Source of the DNA: Longimicrobiales bacterium | GTDB lineage: Bacteria; Gemmatimonadota; Gemmatimonadetes; Longimicrobiales; Gaopeijiaceae | Assembly (NCBI GenBank): GCA_965238005.1 | Contig: OZ250165.1 | Span: 3,456,001 to 3,520,000, forward strand | Direction: 5' to 3' | DNA: 64,000 bases | Shown: piece after piece, positions 1 to 6,250 of the stretch | Numbering within the stretch: the stretch's first letter is position 1 | Layout of the letters: every line of letters starts with the position of its first letter | The notes under the pieces: generated by a model | What the model was told of the DNA's origin: nothing | What the model saw: the letters and a program-made list of their open reading frames with translations, nothing else | Databases searched by the model: none | Program-made: the position numbers and the translations under genes

Positions 1-166
1 CGCAGAGGTAGAGTGTGCGAGCGTGAAGGTCGATGCCACAGTAGTATCGATGCTGGCCCGTGTATGAGCGCATGGTTCCCCTCCTGGGTTGGTTGAATCG
101 AAGTGTCATGCTCTGATTCTTCCGTCCTCTCTTCGAGAGGTCCAGGAGGGGGCCTGCATGAGTATC
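1..166 (-). mobile_element. IS110-family element (transposase N-terminus plus ~93 nt upstream end), inserted in an attC site; continues beyond the window start
   Basis: ATG at 73 (-) with AGGAGGGG RBS gives MRSYTGQHRYYCGIDLHARTLYLC, the DEDD/IS110 N-terminal GIDLH motif. The end ...GGCCTGCATGAGTATC abuts the attC arm AAGCAGTTGCTGCTG. Confidence 0.85.
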
Positions 167-274
167 AAGCAGTTGCTGCTGTCGCGGTAGGCGGATGGGT
201 CCGGAGCACTCGCCTCGCAGCTCGCGCTCCGGGTGGACATGGTGGCGCGCAGCAGAACTGCAAAGTCGTTAGGA
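167..274 (+). repeat. attC site 1 (R'' box separated by the IS110 insertion)
   Basis: GCAGTT(G)CTGCTG pairs with CAGCAGAACTGC with one extrahelical G; ends in core GTTAGGA at 268-274. Confidence 0.85.
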
Positions 275-302
275 AGCGGAGATCCAAGCGAACTGAGCCT
301 GG

Positions 303-1136
303 TCAGTCAGACCCGTCTTCCGACGACCACACGACGCGAAAGCCGATGTGGTTCCAGCGGTAGTCCGTGGCGAGATCATTGGTGACGGCTGCGGCTCTAA
401 GGAAGAAGGCCGGATGCAGGAACGAGCCGCCCTTGAGCTTGAGCGCGTCATGGTTCACGGGGTGCCTATCTCGGTCGAACCAAACGGGCATCACCCACTC
501 TCGAACATTCCCTGCGAGGTCGTAAACGCCCTCAGGTGTCGCATCAGTGGGCCGGGTCATAACCTCGATGGTGCTTCTCGGGGGACACTCACGGTAGTGA
601 GAGCCTTCGCACGTCGGCGCCGAATCACCCCACGGGTACTCCCGTCGTTCCGCGCCTCTCGCGGCGTACTCCCACTCCACCTCTGTCGGTAGGCTGCCCC
701 CCAAAGACACGGCGTAGGCCATGGCTTCTCGCCAGGTGACGTTGACTACGGGATGCTGCCCCCACCCGGCCGGGAAATCGTGCGCAGGATCGAACCGACG
801 GTATTCCTCATTGGTGACCTCGTGCTCCTGCATCCAGAAGCTCTCTAACGTCCACCGTCCCATATCCTCCTCGACCTTGGAGTATGGGCTTCCGATTGGG
901 AACTCATCGGTCCAATCCTCACTGCCGGAAATAAACGGCCCGCCCTCTACCAATACCGCACGGTTCAACGGGTCCGCGGCCCCCTTTGGCGGCATCGACT
1001 GTGCCGCGGTGGCGGCTTGGCCTGCTGTGTCATTCGAACAACCCACCGAAAGCACGACGAGAAAGCCGCCAACGGCGACGCCCGTAGCCCGGATCACCCC
1101 TCCAAGCGAGGTCGACAACTCTATTGCCAGGCGCAT
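303..1136 (-). CDS. Formylglycine-generating enzyme (FGE-sulfatase/SUMF1) family protein, cassette gene in inverted orientation
   Basis: HEVTNEEY, HPVVNVTWREA, LPTEVEWEYAARG, YPWG, DLAGNVREW and IGFRV motifs; lipoprotein-like LSVGC. Start could be 1169. Confidence 0.88.
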   Translation of the reverse strand: MRLAIELSTSLGGVIRATGVAVGGFLVVLSVGCSNDTAGQAATAAQSMPPKGAADPLNRAVLVEGGPFISGSEDWTDEFPIGSPYSKVEEDMGRWTLESFWMQEHEVTNEEYRRFDPAHDFPAGWGQHPVVNVTWREAMAYAVSLGGSLPTEVEWEYAARGAERREYPWGDSAPTCEGSHYRECPPRSTIEVMTRPTDATPEGVYDLAGNVREWVMPVWFDRDRHPVNHDALKLKGGSFLHPAFFLRAAAVTNDLATDYRWNHIGFRVVWSSEDGSD

Positions 1137-1235
1137 GATCAATCCGGGATCAGGCTGCTGCGGACGCACGTAGACTACTCAAGAAACCTACGCCGGTGCT
1201 CGCAGGAAGCGACAGGTGTGTTCGAGCTCTCCGGT

Positions 1236-1330
1236 TCCTAACAAGGGTTTGAAGCTGTCCGGGTAGGCTGCTTAGGTCCGGAGCACTCGGCTTGCACCTC
1301 GCGCTCCGGGCGAACATGGTTGTCCGGTTG
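1236..1330 (+). repeat. attC site 2 (left arm; right arm eroded)
   Basis: TCCTAAC (1236-1242) is the exact reverse complement of GTTAGGA (268-274). The central GGTCCGGAGCACTCG...CTCGCGCTCCGGG is shared with attC1. Confidence 0.75.
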
Positions 1331-1435
1331 GCGGCCTTGGTAGTGAGTAGTGCCCGCCGGTCTGTGCATTCAGTGGCGACAATTCTCTTCGGACCCATAT
1401 TGGTCTGGGTGTTGGTATTGGCCACGACCTGGGCG

Positions 1436-1528
1436 TACTAGCGAGCGATTGCTGCAGTCGCGGTAGGCTTGGAAGGTCGCGAGCTGCGCTTGCGGTCCCC
1501 ATACTGGTGCGCAGCAAAGTCGTTAGGC
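1436..1528 (+). repeat. attC site 3
   Basis: TACTAGC-GAGCGATTGCTGCAGTCGCGGTAG...GCGCAGCAAAGTC-GTTAGGC. Confidence 0.7.
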
Positions 1529-1566
1529 GGCTCCTCGCGAGCGACCGGATCCGAAGGAGGACCTGC

Positions 1567-2202
1567 ATGAGCTCAGACGAGATACCCAGTATCGAGCCGA
1601 CGCCCGACGGGCCCTATCTGGTGAAGAACCTGCAGCACTTCTCCAACCGGAAGGGAGCCATCGAGGCCCGTGCCAGTGTGGCGCTGTGTCGCTGCGGCGG
1701 ATCGGCCAACAAGCCGTTCTGCGATGGGACGCATGCAAAGATTGGATTCTCCTCGGCCAAACTCGAAGGCCGTGTACCGGACAAGCGAGAAGCCTACGAG
1801 GCTGAAAAGATCACCATTCACGACGACCGGGGTATTTGCGCTCACGCTGGGCGTTGCACCGATGGACTCTCCTCGGTGTTCCGCCTGAAGCAGGAGCCCT
1901 GGATCGATCCGCAAGGGGCACTCCCGGAGGAGATCATCGAAACGATCCGGAGATGCCCGTCGGGAGCGCTCAGTTACACGGTCCATGGCGTGGAGCAGCG
2001 CGACCGGAAGGGCCCTGCGGCGATCTTCGTCTCCCTGAACGGCCCCTATGTGGTCACGGGTGGACCGCAGCTTCTCGACACGCCGCGCGGAGAAGGTGCT
2101 TCAACGGAGCATTTCACACTCTGCCGGTGCGGCGGCTCGAAGAACAAGCCGTTCTGTGACGGCTCGCACTGGTATAACAACTTCGATGACGACAAGAACT
2201 GA
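1567..2202 (+). CDS. CDGSH iron-sulfur domain protein (CDGSH - (4Fe-4S)-binding - CDGSH), cassette gene
   Basis: LCRCGGSANKPFCDGTH and LCRCGGSKNKPFCDGSH flank CAHAGRC...RCPSGAL; AAGGAGG RBS before ATG 1567. Confidence 0.92.
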   Translation: MSSDEIPSIEPTPDGPYLVKNLQHFSNRKGAIEARASVALCRCGGSANKPFCDGTHAKIGFSSAKLEGRVPDKREAYEAEKITIHDDRGICAHAGRCTDGLSSVFRLKQEPWIDPQGALPEEIIETIRRCPSGALSYTVHGVEQRDRKGPAAIFVSLNGPYVVTGGPQLLDTPRGEGASTEHFTLCRCGGSKNKPFCDGSHWYNNFDDDKN

Positions 2203-2225
2203 GCCAACGATTCGGGAAGGAGCCC

Positions 2226-2322
2226 GCCCAAGAAGCGATTGCTGCTGACGCAGTCAGCGTGAGGGTCGCGTGCTGCGCACGCGGGGGGTAATGTGGTGCG
2301 CAGAATCGCATATCTGTTAGAG
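2226..2322 (+). repeat. attC site 4
   Basis: CCGCCCAAG approximates the reverse complement of GTTAGGCGG (1522). GCGATT(G)CTGC pairs with GCAGAATCGC. Core GTTAGAG at 2316-2322. Confidence 0.8.
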
Positions 2323-2502
2323 AGCCCTCGTCAGGCGCCTGGCCCGAGGCTGGGTCCGCGATCGTATCCACGCGGCTACTGCTTCCTCATCGAGCTTGCC
2401 GGAAGCCAAGGCCAGCATTCTCTGAACTACTTCGTCTTCGGGGGCGATGAAGTCGAATCCGTTGAGGCCGAGAAAGATGACGGCCGCCAACAACGAGATC
2501 CG
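2317..2502 (-). pseudogene. C-terminal remnant of a Doc/Fic (death-on-curing) toxin inside a ~290 bp cassette
   Basis: Minus frame reads RISLLAAVIFLGLNGFDFIAPEDEVVQRMLALASGKLDEEAVAAWIRSR. No start codon and no HPFxDGNK motif. Confidence 0.7.
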
Positions 2503-2504
2503 CT

Positions 2505-2603
2505 CTCTAACGAGTGTTTGCTACTGTCGCGGTAACGCTGCGGGTCGCGCGCTACTCGCGCGCAGCCCAGATTGATGCGCATCAGAAGCCCGAGACGTTA
2601 GGC
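2505..2603 (+). repeat. attC site 5
   Basis: GCTCTCTAAC (2502-2511) is a 10/10 reverse complement of GTTAGAGAGC (2316-2325); ends in GTTAGGC at 2597-2603. Confidence 0.82.
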
Positions 2604-2631
2604 TGCACGAGCAACGTAAGATCGTGCGTCT

Positions 2632-3357
2632 TTGGGAAAAGAACCCTTGCAGAATTCCTCAGACCGTCAGCTCCGCCGAATCGGGGCCATTGCAGCCATG
2701 CTCGGCCCGCTGGTGCTGCTCGTTTCAACGCTTATGCATCCGCGTGAGGCCGACCCCAACGACGCAGTTGCAGCTTTCACAGAATATGCTGCCGATCGTC
2801 TTTGGGTAGGAACTCACCTTGGTCAATTCCTCGGGGTGGCGATTATCGTGGCGGCGTTAGTGATGCTTTCTCGCTCACTGGAGGAAGGAAAAGCCGCGGC
2901 CTGGTCGCGCATCGGCTTAGCCGGAGCAATCGCCACTCTTGCTTGCACAGCCGTCCTTCAGGCTGTCGATGGAGTGGCCCTCAAGTTCATGGTAGACCGA
3001 TGGGCTGCGGCGCCAGCGGAACAACAACCAACGATCTTTGAAGCTGCCTTTGGTGTTCGGCAAGTTGAGGCCGGGTTGGCGAGCCTGACGAGTTTGCTCT
3101 TCGGGATCACGGTAACAGCGTATGGTGTCGCCATGCTTCTTAGCCCGATCTACCCAGCTTGGGTTGGCCTCTTGGCGATAGTTGATGGGCTCGGGACCGC
3201 AGCTGGTGCCGTCGTCCTGGCCTACGCCGGGTTTTCGGAATTGATGATGACGATAAGCATGCCTGCCAACCTCCTCCTGCTGGTGTGGATGATCGTCGTT
3301 GGCGTTTTGATGTGGACTCGAGGCGGCAAAGAGCACGCGAGCAACAGTGGGGCCTAA
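2632..3357 (+). CDS. Multi-pass membrane protein (DUF4386-like), cassette gene
   Basis: About six hydrophobic helices. The TAA stop lies inside the attC R'' box GCCTAAC, which is typical of cassettes. Confidence 0.75.
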   Translation: MGKEPLQNSSDRQLRRIGAIAAMLGPLVLLVSTLMHPREADPNDAVAAFTEYAADRLWVGTHLGQFLGVAIIVAALVMLSRSLEEGKAAAWSRIGLAGAIATLACTAVLQAVDGVALKFMVDRWAAAPAEQQPTIFEAAFGVRQVEAGLASLTSLLFGITVTAYGVAMLLSPIYPAWVGLLAIVDGLGTAAGAVVLAYAGFSELMMTISMPANLLLLVWMIVVGVLMWTRGGKEHASNSGA

Positions 3358-3732
3358 CTTATCAAGAGCCCCGTGGATCGCCTTCATGTAGAGCCATGGC
3401 CGAGCACGAAGGGGATCTGCTCACGAGCACAGAGATCGGCGAGCCAGTACCAACAGAAGATGCACTCGCTGCCCACCACGAGGTCTGCACGGTGGGGCTT
3501 GAGGGCGCGAAGCAATGCCTCGCGCTCACAGCGCAGCCTCTTGTGCAGGCGTATCTTGCCCTGGGAGTCCAGGACGCAGAGGTAGAGCGTGCGAGCGTGA
3601 AGGTCGAAGATGCCACAGGAGGGGGCCTGCATGAGTATCAAGCGCTTGCTGCAGTCGCGGTAGCGTGGAGGGTCGCGCGCTTCGCTTGCGGTCTGCGTCT
3701 TAGGCGCGGAGCAGAATGGCGAGACGTTAGCT
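3352..3732 (+). repeat. attC site 6, split by a mini-IS110 directly after R''
   Basis: GCCTAAC (3352-3358, reverse complement of GTTAGGC 2597) | insertion | AAGCGCTTGCTGCAGTCGCGGTAG...GAGAC-GTTAGCT (3726-3732). Confidence 0.85.
3359..3639 (-). mobile_element. Internally deleted, non-autonomous IS110 derivative
   Basis: 3575-3639 matches 1-41 joined to 146-166. Encodes CGIFDLHARTLYLC...VGSECIFCWYWLADLC...FVLGH and MKAIHG. Confidence 0.85.
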
Positions 3733-3787: not shown

Positions 3788-4279
3788 TCAGTTTCGCTTT
3801 GTCGTGTCCGGTGAGAGCTCGCGGAGGCTGTCTTCCAGCTTCATGTACCAGGGATCGTCGACGCTGTCGCGTTGGAAGTAGAGTATGACCTCCCGCTCGT
3901 TGATCAGCGCGTTCAGGAGGAGCTTCACCTTCACGCGCAACTTCACCCGGGCCCGGAGCCCGCCCGAGTCGATCTCTGCGAAGACGACCTCGTAGTCCTT
4001 GATGTCCAGGGCCTCCGGTCTCACCGTGAAAAGGCGCTGGATAAGGAACGGAATATCGACGCTGTCGCGTATGTCGGGTGCGTGGTAGCTCGCCGCGCTC
4101 ACGAAATCCTTGAACTGGATGTCCTCCAGGAACGCAAGCGCCACGCGCCGAAGTGCGCCGCGATCCCCGCCGAGGGCCAGGCCCAGGGTTGAGAAGGCGC
4201 CCCCGGAGACGTGCGCTACGCCGAGGTAGCCTCCCAGGAGAAGGGCCAGCACCAACAGGGCGGTCACGGCCTTTTTCAT
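3788..4279 (-). CDS. Hypothetical membrane-anchored protein, co-translated with the ABC genes
   Basis: N-terminal hydrophobic anchor; ATGA overlap with the upstream permease. Confidence 0.75.
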   Translation of the reverse strand: MKKAVTALLVLALLLGGYLGVAHVSGGAFSTLGLALGGDRGALRRVALAFLEDIQFKDFVSAASYHAPDIRDSVDIPFLIQRLFTVRPEALDIKDYEVVFAEIDSGGLRARVKLRVKVKLLLNALINEREVILYFQRDSVDDPWYMKLEDSLRELSPDTTKRN

Positions 4280-5013
4280 GTCACGACCTCACGCCGGGGG
4301 AGCAGGGACGCCGTAGCGGCGGCGACGAGGACCGTGGACATGGCCAGCAGTACGACCAGAAATAGCGCAACCATGTGCCAGCGAGGCTCGAGGGCGGCGC
4401 TCTCCTCGAAGACGCGAAAGGCCCAGTGTACAGGCATCGCCCTTTCCACGGCGGCGACGACGTCGCTATAAAGATTATTGGGGATCGCCAGCTCGGAGAA
4501 CAGTATTTGGGGGAGGAGGAGAAGCGGCACCGCGAACACCGCCCGCTCCTGGGTCGTCGCCAGGGCGCTGACGAGGAGGCCGAGGCCGGTGCCCGCCAGC
4601 GAGGCACCGAAGAGTGCCAGAAGCTCCAGCGGCATGGGACCTCGGAGCTGGAGGTGCCACTCCACCGTCCCCTGCAACAGGACGACCTGAGCCGCGCCGA
4701 GGGCGGCCAGCACCCACACCTTGGAGGCGACGTAGGCGCCGGGGCGGAGGCCGAAGAGGCGCTCCCGCTCGAGGATGGCGCGCTCCTTTACGATTTCCCG
4801 GCAGGCGTTGATGCACCCGAACCAGACGGCCGCCAGGCAGAGCACGAAGTAGAGCGCGGGCGTGTCACGCTCGATGGACCCCCACACCACGGCGCACAGC
4901 CATCCGATGAGGGGGGCCTGCGCCAGAACCAGGACCAGGCCACCCATGTCGCCGAGCCAGCAGTCCCGGTAGCGGGCTGCCAGGATGTGCGACTGCCGGC
5001 GCGGCGTGCTCAC
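4276..5013 (-). CDS. ABC-2 type transporter permease
   Basis: REIVKERAILERERL, YVASK and PLLLLPQILFS motifs; six TM segments. Confidence 0.88.
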   Translation of the reverse strand: MSTPRRQSHILAARYRDCWLGDMGGLVLVLAQAPLIGWLCAVVWGSIERDTPALYFVLCLAAVWFGCINACREIVKERAILERERLFGLRPGAYVASKVWVLAALGAAQVVLLQGTVEWHLQLRGPMPLELLALFGASLAGTGLGLLVSALATTQERAVFAVPLLLLPQILFSELAIPNNLYSDVVAAVERAMPVHWAFRVFEESAALEPRWHMVALFLVVLLAMSTVLVAAATASLLPRREVVT

Positions 5014-5921
5014 GGAACCTCCGGGCTCCCCAGCCGAGCCTTCAGGCGGTCGAGGGCTTCGTCAGTGCTGGTCAGGCCTCTCTCCCCACTTGCTCGGGCG
5101 GCTTGCGAACGGGGTGCGGGCCCCGGGCGGCGGAGAAACGTCCGCTGGTCTGGGTCCGCGCTGGCGGTGAGGTGCCAGGCCGACGGCGATTGCTTCTCGA
5201 GCTGTCGGAAGAGTTCGGCGTACCGATCGACCCGGAAGTACGAGAGCGCTTTTCGGGGCGGCCCGAAGAAAGCGACGTATCCGCCCACCAGCACGCACAG
5301 TGCTTCGGCCCGCTCGATGCTCTCCATGGCGTGGGTGGCCACGAGGACGATCCGGCCGGTCCCCGCGACCTGGGACAGGAGTGCCATCGTACGCGCCTCG
5401 AGACCGGGGTCGAGACCCGAAGTCGGCTCGTCGAGGATGAGCAACGGCGGGCCGGTCAGGAGCTCGAGGGCCACTGACACGCGCTTTCTCTGGCCACCGG
5501 AGAGCTGGCGAATGCGGACTCCGGAGCGGTCACCAAGGTCGACCTGGTCGAGGACCTCCGCGATCCGGGACTGGCGCTCCTCCGCGCTCGTCCCCGGCAT
5601 GCGCAGCTCAGCGGCATAGGTCAGCTCGCGCCGCACGGTGAGCCCCCGGTGGAGCGTGTCATCTTGGGGCACATAGCCGACCGGGCCCAGCTTCGCCACG
5701 GGGAGCGGTCCCATCATCACGGACCCCTCGTCAGGATCCCGAAGGCCCAGGAGCGCCTTGATAAGCGTGCTCTTTCCCGCCCCCGACGGACCGATAAGCG
5801 CGCACATCTCCCCGGGGTGCAGCGTCAGGTCCACCATCTTGAGAATGCGGGTGCCGCCGGCAGACACACCCACGTTCTCCACGCGCAGGGGACCGGGGAG
5901 AAGGCTCGTCGTCGAGGCCAC
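5010..5921 (-). CDS. ABC transporter ATP-binding protein (ABCG-like)
   Basis: GPSGAGKST, YVPQDD, LSGGQRKRV, LDEPTSGLD and ATH motifs. Confidence 0.93.
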   Translation of the reverse strand: MASTTSLLPGPLRVENVGVSAGGTRILKMVDLTLHPGEMCALIGPSGAGKSTLIKALLGLRDPDEGSVMMGPLPVAKLGPVGYVPQDDTLHRGLTVRRELTYAAELRMPGTSAEERQSRIAEVLDQVDLGDRSGVRIRQLSGGQRKRVSVALELLTGPPLLILDEPTSGLDPGLEARTMALLSQVAGTGRIVLVATHAMESIERAEALCVLVGGYVAFFGPPRKALSYFRVDRYAELFRQLEKQSPSAWHLTASADPDQRTFLRRPGPAPRSQAARASGERGLTSTDEALDRLKARLGSPEVP

Positions 5922-6200: not shown

Positions 6201-6250
6201 TCATGACAAGCGCTTGCTACCGTCGCGGTAGGCGTCGGGCTCGCTGGCGA
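6201..6250 (+). repeat. attC remnant 7 (left arm only)
   Basis: TCATGAC-AAGCGCTTGCTACCGTCGCGGTAGGCG matches the left arms of attC1, 3 and 6. Confidence 0.6.

Follow-up and report, generated by a model that had tools for sequence, protein, structure and literature searches.

The window analysed here (64 kb; bases 3456001-3520000 of the single 4.84-Mb contig, OZ250165.1, of a Longimicrobiales bacterium, assembly GCA_965238005.1) carries two copies of an insertion sequence (IS) of the IS110 superfamily, at positions 1-166 (copy 1) and 3359-3639 (copy 2). We consider it highly probable that these represent two independent, now dead insertions of one IS in attC sites of a chromosomal integron, and that this IS, when intact, would circularise and insert under the guidance of its own downstream RNA. 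Both copies are dead remnants without transposase and target-guide module, internally deleted rather than whole, a point that had been missed in the original prediction made from the letters of the window. The evidence on the mechanism comes from the wider family, whose members occupy the same position of attC in many phyla and carry non-coding blocks that co-vary with the sequences flanking each insertion and with the element's own ends.

Two copies at one position of the attC site

The same 20-mer junction, GGCCTGCATGAGTATCAAGC, stands at window positions 151-170 and 3624-3643, each time directly 5' of an attC arm; these are its only two occurrences in the 64-kb window (0 expected in 100 shuffles), which bears out the original claim of an identical insertion position in two attC sites. 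The element part of this junction, GGCCTGCATGAGTATC (151-166 and 3624-3639), is followed by AAGCAGTTGCTGC in copy 1 and by AAGCGCTTGCTGC in copy 2. As also predicted, both copies lie antisense to the cassettes, and at the other end of copy 2 the element sequence starts (at 3359) directly after the box GCCTAAC (3352-3358); at this R'' box, the junction of copy 2 falls 2 bases short of that of intact relatives. Copy 1 runs leftwards beyond the window, and in front of its far end (genome 3455603/3455604), where an RYYYAAC box was to be looked for, stands GCCTAAAC, an R'' box that is nearly canonical but for an additional A; the refuting condition set in the original prediction for this end does therefore not apply.

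Copy 1 spans genome 3455604-3456166 (about 563 bp) and has kept both termini; it has lost 172 bp and 876 bp internally, both to the left of the window, and the larger gap holds 13 unrelated letters. Copy 2 (281 bp) retains about 250 bp of the transposase N-terminal region; start codon and guide region are missing altogether, and both the left end and the gene are gone for the most part. Its positions 3616-3639 are 100% identical to window 143-166, and the identity to the full-length copy amounts to 92.8% for copy 1 (element positions 8-186) and 91.4% for copy 2 (125-376).

A BLAST search of the genome with the full-length copy (Table 1) gave 9 matches, among them four more element scraps elsewhere in the genome. 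In this genome the element is extinct or nearly so. In its intact form (~1.6 kb) it comprises a 93-nt left end, a gene for a 348-aa recombinase, a 460-nt non-coding region and 9-bp subterminal inverted repeats, of which, by reading, CAGGCCCCC is set 10 nt in from the left terminus and its complement 6 nt in from the right one.

Two further observations concern these copies. Another remnant, at genome 3672785-3673035 (locus L003), consists of the N-terminal coding part only and adjoins the apparent 3' half of a tRNA gene; an attC-like arm follows, and the remnant stops at an internal AGTATC, a mimic of the true terminus. Within the cassette array, an intact-looking transposase gene of ~430 codons (genome 3453569-3454868, plus strand) lies between copy 1 and the full-length copy; by our reading of its sequence it is probably of the IS256/Mutator type, and it may have disrupted the attC adjoining the full-length copy.

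The array shows the R''/R' inverted boxes (RYYYAAC ... GTTRRRY) and imperfect hairpins of integron attC sites, and an integron integrase gene stands beside it, 14 kb upstream (genome 3441723-3442649, plus strand; 326.6 bits vs a curated cut-off of 265). The local attC inner-repeat motif, allowing at most 1 mismatch, occurs at six genome sites (out of 70 matches with up to 3 mismatches), five of them in the array (window 173, 1449, 2518, 3646 and 6214). Once restored in script, attC site 1 folds as a hairpin with R'' and R' paired (bottom strand, dG -27.3, z -3.58), and for restored attC site 6 the minimum-energy fold of the top strand (z -1.02) has the CTAAC and GTTAG boxes paired. The integrase gene has the same strand as the cassettes and is not divergent from them. 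In class 1 integrons the integrase gene is divergent from the cassettes.

Relatives and target site

The transposase encoded by the full-length copy belongs to the IS110 superfamily, as had been proposed, with an N-terminal DEDD/RuvC-like domain (PF01548, 36.3 bits, cut-off 29) and a C-terminal Transposase_20 domain (PF02371, 70.3 bits, cut-off 21.3); it also scores 184.6 bits (cut-off 140) with NCBIfam NF033542, 'IS110 family RNA-guided transposase'. The serine of its HRSAGK motif is presumably the catalytic residue. The alignment with the IS621 recombinase (8wt6, E 1.6e-4) matches this serine to the serine stretch ESGSS.

A scan of one genome per species yielded at least 610 pattern matches and at least 539 confirmed relatives, of which the best 80 (79 distinct loci; 56-96% identity to the 348-aa transposase over the best aligned segment) were used for the locus analyses. 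Their hosts are Longimicrobiales, other Gemmatimonadota, Eisenbacteria, Nitrospirota, Desulfobacterota, Beta- and Gammaproteobacteria, Chloroflexota, Planctomycetota, Acidobacteriota and others. Of the 121 genomes sampled from the order to which the window belongs, 5 (the window's own genome among them) carry a copy (E <= 1e-60), indicating a patchy, mobile distribution.

Element ends were called by motif search, which gave 62 distinct left and 55 distinct right flanks (the left-end calls of the N-terminally cut L056 and L066 were dropped). Read in transposase orientation, the left flank ends in T in 59/62 cases and in TT in 49/62; the right flank begins with GTT in 53/55 and has A at position +4 in 42/55. 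The strict form GTTRRRY accounts for 22 of the 55 right flanks, and GTT plus at least three of the four other positions for 42. In attC orientation, this corresponds to one fixed insertion point, RYYYAAC|AAG, antisense to the cassettes, so that the target originally proposed (the attC consensus CTAAC|AAG at one fixed position) holds in this genome as well as in related loci of many phyla. The donor junction (..ATAAG-TG-ATACT..) and the target (..CT-TG-TTAG..) share a TG, which leaves the ends ambiguous by two bases. Empty sites rebuilt from 110 nt of left flank and 10 nt of right flank fold with a mean z of -2.05 (20/40 below -2), as compared with a mean z of -0.05 (0/40 below -2) for control windows taken 100 nt further upstream.

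Candidate guide blocks in the downstream non-coding region

The 460 nt downstream of the transposase gene hold blocks that are invariant across phyla, and four blocks there track, respectively, the right target flank, the left target flank, the right element end and the left element end. Each association was assessed by permuting flanks or ends among loci (5000 permutations each). The first block (six bases before AAC, ~30 nt past the stop codon) agrees, over 54 locus pairs, with 186 of 324 positions of the right-flank complement, compared with 141.0 +/- 7.1 in the permutations, none of which reached 186. The agreement extends to atypical flanks, such as GTTGGG in L035 (9/9) and GTTGTGC in L065 (7/7), and in both L018 and L025 the internal block and the flank match at 8/8 positions. 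The second block (six bases before TGATT in the GCTTGATT block) agrees with the left flank at 175/300 positions (113.6 +/- 7.0; 0/5000); in L077, where the left flank is an atypical ..CATCAT|, the block reads CATCATGATT, a 9-nt match.

The two remaining blocks concern the ends of the element itself. The ATAAGTG block follows the right-end terminus (130/198 vs 119.8 +/- 2.8; 0/5000) and mirrors the terminus variants ATAGGT (12 loci), ATACGT (1), ATATGT (2) and ATAAGG (1); five loci ending in ATAAGG show no matching change. The seven bases just past RAGGG agree with the complement of nt 6-12 of the left end (106/231 vs 77.1 +/- 5.2; 0/5000), whereas the five terminal left-end bases show hardly any variation and hence no signal.

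One helix-closed loop holds blocks 1 and 2, one on each strand. In 47 of 52 elements the closing helix reaches 8 bp or more, and its arms come in 33 distinct sequences; arms combined across different elements form 8 bp in 25.7% of 2036 trials. The block predicted to pair with the top strand stands 5' of its bottom-strand counterpart, with an overlap at the core. A second, paralogous loop is closed by CCCCTY:RAGGG, compatible in 26/26 distinct pairs (C-G 17, T-A 6, T-G 3). Its CTAAC block shows no significant association with the right flank (591/5000 permutations, p 0.12), and its TTTGA block tracks the left flank weakly (p 0.004). This second loop (e.g. about 3660-3760 in L006, between the guide loops) has near-invariant strands, CTAACTGG and YTTGAnTnGG, and looks like a generic copy of the target-binding loop, as far as its sequence can tell.

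Segments matching both target strands at the insertion point, together with segments matching both element ends as donor guides, are features of bridge RNAs and seekRNAs, and from the four associations above we infer that the non-coding blocks would have such a layout. The co-variation of blocks and flanks is what would be expected of the RNA guidance, tuned to the attC sites of the host lineage, that the original prediction had put forward; this part of the prediction agrees with the sequences, and the guidance as such is a putative one.

Two loci show peculiarities in this region. The right end of the element in L010, a locus of a related Longimicrobiales genome, is tandemly duplicated over 143 bp (about 3855-4140): after the terminal ..GATAAGT it resumes at an internal GATAAGTGTTTGG block, which suggests recombination between the terminus and an internal guide block mimicking it. 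The left flank of L038 carries TTGATTGGC, identical to the element's internal left-target guide block, and this copy may sit in the remains of another.

Predicted circle-junction promoter and proposed mechanism

When the two ends are joined in script, 43 of the 46 distinct junctions show a -35 hexamer (at least 5/6 to TTGACA) 16-19 nt ahead of the left-end hexamer, with a spacing of mostly 17-18 nt and the overall layout TTGACA-N17/18-GATACT; the left-end terminal hexamer is GATACT in 35 of the 46. The 93 nt between the element end and the start codon (window 74-166 in copy 1) had been suggested to contribute either to a circle-junction promoter or to the guide RNA. The former suggestion stands, as this segment provides the -10 hexamer GATACT in addition to the 5' untranslated region; the guide blocks are found in the 460-nt downstream region instead.

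By analogy with characterised members of the superfamily, the element would first excise as a circle. The joining of its ends would set the right-end -35 (TTGACT or TTGACA) 17-18 nt from the left-end GATACT, and the resulting junction promoter would drive the recombinase gene along with the downstream non-coding RNA. One guide of this RNA would pair with the top strand of GTTRRRY (the R'' box) and another with the bottom strand of ..GCTT, two more guides of the same molecule being devoted to the element's own ends. The recombinase would then exchange strands at the shared TG core, and the element would land between RYYYAAC and AAG of attC, antisense to the cassettes.

Relation to known systems

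The nearest ISfinder transposase is that of ISMahy12, an element from another organism (presumably a Marinobacter, going by the name). Among the ISfinder transposases in the supplement of PMC11187229, it is the only one that shares the motif GNAHLKWAF with the 348-aa protein; the two are collinear over their full length, with 96 of the first 157 residues identical (hand count) and further motifs in common, including GIDLHAR, HALYMKAIHG, TIPGVGRILALT and KIGNAHLKWAFSEAAV. In the Fig. 8b table of the same source, ISMahy12 is labelled as IS1111 type with 2 unique insertion events. The identity matrix given there places it at 17.1% to ISPst6, 16.8% to ISKpn4, 17.8% to ISPa21 and 18.2% to ISPa25, at 15-23% to the IS1111-type entries in the first 171 of 345 columns, and at the far end among ISGsu4/5, ISShfr7 and ISShwo5. 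The original notion of a possibly undescribed subgroup thus holds in substance, the family grouping with ISMahy12 at ~17% identity to ISPst6, ISKpn4 and ISPa21. In a tblastn search of 72,556 plasmids, the matches listed at 50-60% identity fall only in Manganitrophus, Alteromonas, Pseudoalteromonas, Catenovulum, Salinivibrio and Vibrio; among the same listed matches, those at about 30% are named as ISGsu4 family, and the E. coli and Klebsiella rows are only partial ISEc45-type ones.

The IS1111 group is defined, in PMC11187229, by subterminal inverted repeats of sufficient length, a longer non-coding region downstream of the gene and a transposase that resembles that of IS1111 over its whole length and has the motif GL-P----S(t)G. 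The element has both features of the layout (460 nt downstream vs 93 nt upstream of the gene, and subterminal inverted repeats). Its motif reads RLAKPEHRSAG, by which the transposase would seem to depart from the IS1111 type, judged through ISMahy12 as a stand-in and not from a tree.

RNA guidance in IS110/IS1111 elements and an attC-targeting group among them, both taken as prior knowledge in the original prediction, are already on record: according to PMC11187229, seekRNA guidance has been shown for the attC-targeting ISKpn4 and ISPst6 and also for ISPa25, and the IS1111-attC group, as presented in PMC3001079, forms a single clade whose insertions lie close to the attC 5' end and antisense to the array. 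Our family shares with this group (ISPst6, ISPa21, ISKpn4, ISPa25) a DEDD recombinase, insertion near the attC 5' end in one orientation, antisense to the cassettes, subterminal repeats and a long downstream non-coding region, the RNA from which matches (here by prediction) both target strands. In IS1111-type seekRNAs, again following PMC11187229, the top-strand guide stands 5' of the bottom-strand guide, which is also the order found here if 'top' refers to the transposase orientation. On the other hand, the recombinase appears to be of another lineage (~17-18% identity with ISMahy12 as stand-in), the C-terminal motif is RLAKPEHRSAG and not GL-P----S(t)G, and the conserved non-coding region is ~340 nt long, in three modules, as opposed to the published seekRNA of 82-86 nt. 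Going by the stand-in's identity to ISPst6 and ISPa21 (17.1% and 17.8%) and by the plasmid matches listed, among which no members of that clade appear, the family would fall outside the IS1111-attC clade.

The known attC-targeting group has been described mainly in Pseudomonas and in clinical class 1 integrons. The hosts of our family, in contrast, belong to many phyla and not mainly to Pseudomonas and its relatives. In the literature searched, from which Tetu & Holmes 2008, Post & Hall 2009 (both reportedly on the IS1111-attC group, according to citing passages) and the ISfinder notes fell outside, no text names an ISMahy12-like lineage as an attC invader; ISMahy12 itself is named in no main text of that literature, nor is its target stated there. 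Overall, the family appears to work like the IS1111-attC group without being a member of that clade, judging from sequence comparison.

IS621 (structures 8wt6-8wt9) offers another comparison. Its bridge RNA, as described in PMC11208160, is a single RNA with separate guides for both target and both donor strands around a 2-nt core. The predicted RNA of our family would have the same four-guide arrangement, and the recombinases have in common a RuvC-like DEDD domain and a serine domain. The differences are that the RNA would come from downstream and not upstream of the gene, that the subterminal repeats are long (9 bp), that the core is TG and not CT, that there is an extra paralogous module, and that in each guide pair the top-strand guide would stand 5' of the bottom-strand guide; the protein similarity is weak and confined to the C-terminal domain (E 1.6e-4). 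Group IIC-attC introns, as outlined in PMC3001079, also invade attC near its 5' end and antisense to the cassettes; being retroelements, however, they have a ribozyme and a reverse transcriptase, both of which are absent from the present element.

Alternative explanations

Several observations weigh against the reading of the copies as independent insertions of an RNA-guided IS, or against parts of it. The sole full-length copy in the genome lacks 4 nt of its left terminus, as revealed by comparison with eight close relatives (..CTG|CTCATG vs ..CTT|GATACTCATG); in contigs from two public runs the left end of this copy continues TATCAAGC.., which is the intact form. Among the contigs of 4 sequencing runs aligned to the full-length copy no circle junction was found; run X1 shares the deletions of copy 1 and is therefore probably the source sample and not an independent one. 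Of the 24 sequencing runs listed, none is an RNA run. Some of the scraps elsewhere in the genome lie at sites unlike attC, and the left flanks of L009-L011 are likewise unlike attC. An exact R' partner of the right flank, looked for upstream of the left flank, was present in 9/43 loci vs 5 in the control, a signal too weak to rely on, and the recognised feature is probably a short sequence rather than the hairpin as such. With respect to the guides, the permutations leave the relatedness between loci in place, and cross controls gave p 0.24 and p about 0.02 (the latter for the left-flank guide against the right flank), which indicates some inflation of these tests by relatedness, much smaller than the observed effects. 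In each guide, one mismatch to the usual partner is conserved (e.g. GTTTGG vs GTTAGG), and the paralogous middle module has no place assigned in the guide scheme. RNAalifold returned 19 pairs, none with a compensatory change, for a 29-sequence alignment of the distal region (29 of 36 distinct regions, omitting the near-identical Longimicrobiales L010, L013 and L070 and the long-insert L038, L063, L067 and L074), a run that is uninformative because the blocks are near-invariant and the variable hairpins misalign. A search of the full-length copy and copy 1 (6327 bases) found no Rfam family, with 3 matches at chance level (E 0.66-0.8).

The identical 20-base junction and the presence of both copies in one array would also suit a single old insertion that was spread by cassette duplication or by attC x attC recombination. 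Such an origin is extremely unlikely in our view: the adjoining attC arms differ (AAGCAGTTGCTGCTG vs AAGCGCTTGCTGCAG), as do the R'' boxes (GCCTAAAC vs GCCTAAC) and the internal deletions; each copy differs by 7-12% from the full-length one in the parts that match; the same junction recurs in dozens of unrelated loci; and neither common deletion breakpoints nor common flanking cassette sequence beyond attC were seen between the copies. A recombinase that reads the folded attC or the R'' box by protein alone, the blocks being end-binding sites, a promoter or a terminator, strikes us as very unlikely too. The core target TT|GTTA is short and near-invariant and could thus be read by a protein, and the subterminal repeats suggest protein binding at the ends; however, lineage-specific positions outside this invariant core co-vary between blocks and flanks (L035, L018, L025, L065, L077), the guide blocks occupy loops closed by helices with many compensatory changes, and the family is named RNA-guided in NCBIfam. 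The copies might, finally, be ordinary IS1111-attC members of the ISPst6/ISPa21/ISKpn4 clade with nothing new about them, given that the behaviour described for that clade (PMC3001079) and the IS1111-like layout, with subterminal repeats and a long downstream non-coding region, are the same. This is very unlikely in view of the nearest ISfinder transposase, that of ISMahy12, being only 16.8-18.2% identical to ISPst6, ISKpn4, ISPa21 and ISPa25, and of the plasmid matches listed, which fall in marine Gammaproteobacteria and Manganitrophus and then in the ISGsu4 family.

Implications

For the window itself, the preferred reading (two independent insertions of a putatively RNA-guided IS) has a modest yield, namely two pieces of debris from a known kind of element. 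What sequence comparison would add is a distinct and very widespread lineage, together with a predicted four-guide, three-module RNA whose organisation can be read from co-variation. A broader proposal, to which we would give an even chance, is that of a deep-branching, ISMahy12-like lineage of the IS110 superfamily, present in many phyla and ~17% identical to the IS1111-attC group, which independently became, or anciently was, an attC specialist. It would employ a downstream RNA of ~340 nt in three modules that carries four guides, two each for the target and for the element's own ends. The lineage may be a main IS among those that shape integron arrays in the environment, and also a natural bridge-type recombinase of compact size whose RNA is unusually laid out.

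If this were true, there would be a second, distant and very widespread attC-invading lineage, making IS invasion a general force on environmental integrons. Cassette arrays can be frozen or cut short by elements that split their attC sites. The family also offers natural material for deriving target guides, donor guides and closing helices from co-variation. Its layout, with downstream guides, a TG core and an extra paralogous module, is unlike both the IS621 bridge RNA and the short ISKpn4 seekRNA, and this makes the mechanism testable with a simple plasmid assay.

Coordinates and neighbouring genes

Table 1. Element copies and attC sites (window positions unless marked as genome positions).
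Feature	Position	Strand	Remarks
Transposase gene, first 24 codons, in remnant copy 1	1..73	-	Start codon ATG is the reverse complement of 71-73; runs left to genome 3455604
Left end (93 nt) of copy 1	74..166	-	Ribosome-binding site and 5' untranslated region; terminus conserved across loci
Subterminal inverted repeat in the left end of copy 1	148-156		Reverse complement of CAGGCCCCC
Terminal hexamer GATACT of the left end of copy 1	161-166		Reverse complement at this position; -10 of the predicted circle-junction promoter
Remnant copy 2	3359..3639	-	Right-end terminus of about 10 nt (3359-3367), internal piece of the N-terminal region, terminal 24 nt of the left end (3616-3639)
Full-length copy	genome 3451465-3453059	-	3 kb left of the window; intact 348-codon frame; sole full-length copy in the genome
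attC site 1, downstream of the insertion point	167..274	+	Starts AAGCAGTTGCTGC; R' box GTTAGGA at 268-274; motif with 0 mismatches at 173-189
R'' box GCCTAAC of attC site 6	3352..3358	+	Severed from its own attC by copy 2
attC site 6, downstream of the insertion point	3640..3732	+	Starts AAGCGCTTGCTGC; R' box GTTAGCT at 3726-3732; motif with 0 mismatches at 3646-3662
Uninterrupted attC of the same array (empty target)	1437..1534	+	ACTAGC|GAGCGATTGCTGC ... GTTAGGC
Uninterrupted attC of the same array	2505..2606	+	CTCTAAC|GAGTGTTTGCTAC ... GTTAGGC; R'' and R' pair in the fold, bottom strand z -2.19

Among the cassette genes of the region are one for an FGE-sulfatase-like protein, one for a CDGSH iron-sulfur protein and one for a membrane protein that belongs to no family. 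The FGE-sulfatase-like gene (window 303-1169, minus strand; PF03781, 132.9 bits) lies between two attC sites and is oriented opposite to the other cassettes. A further attC 5' half, ACAAGCGCTTGCTACCGTCGCGGTAGG, with 1 mismatch to the local motif, is found at window 6205-6240, past three minus-strand genes (3788-5921), one of no family and two for ABC transporters; the array, or what remains of it, may extend past the attC site that the original prediction took as the last.

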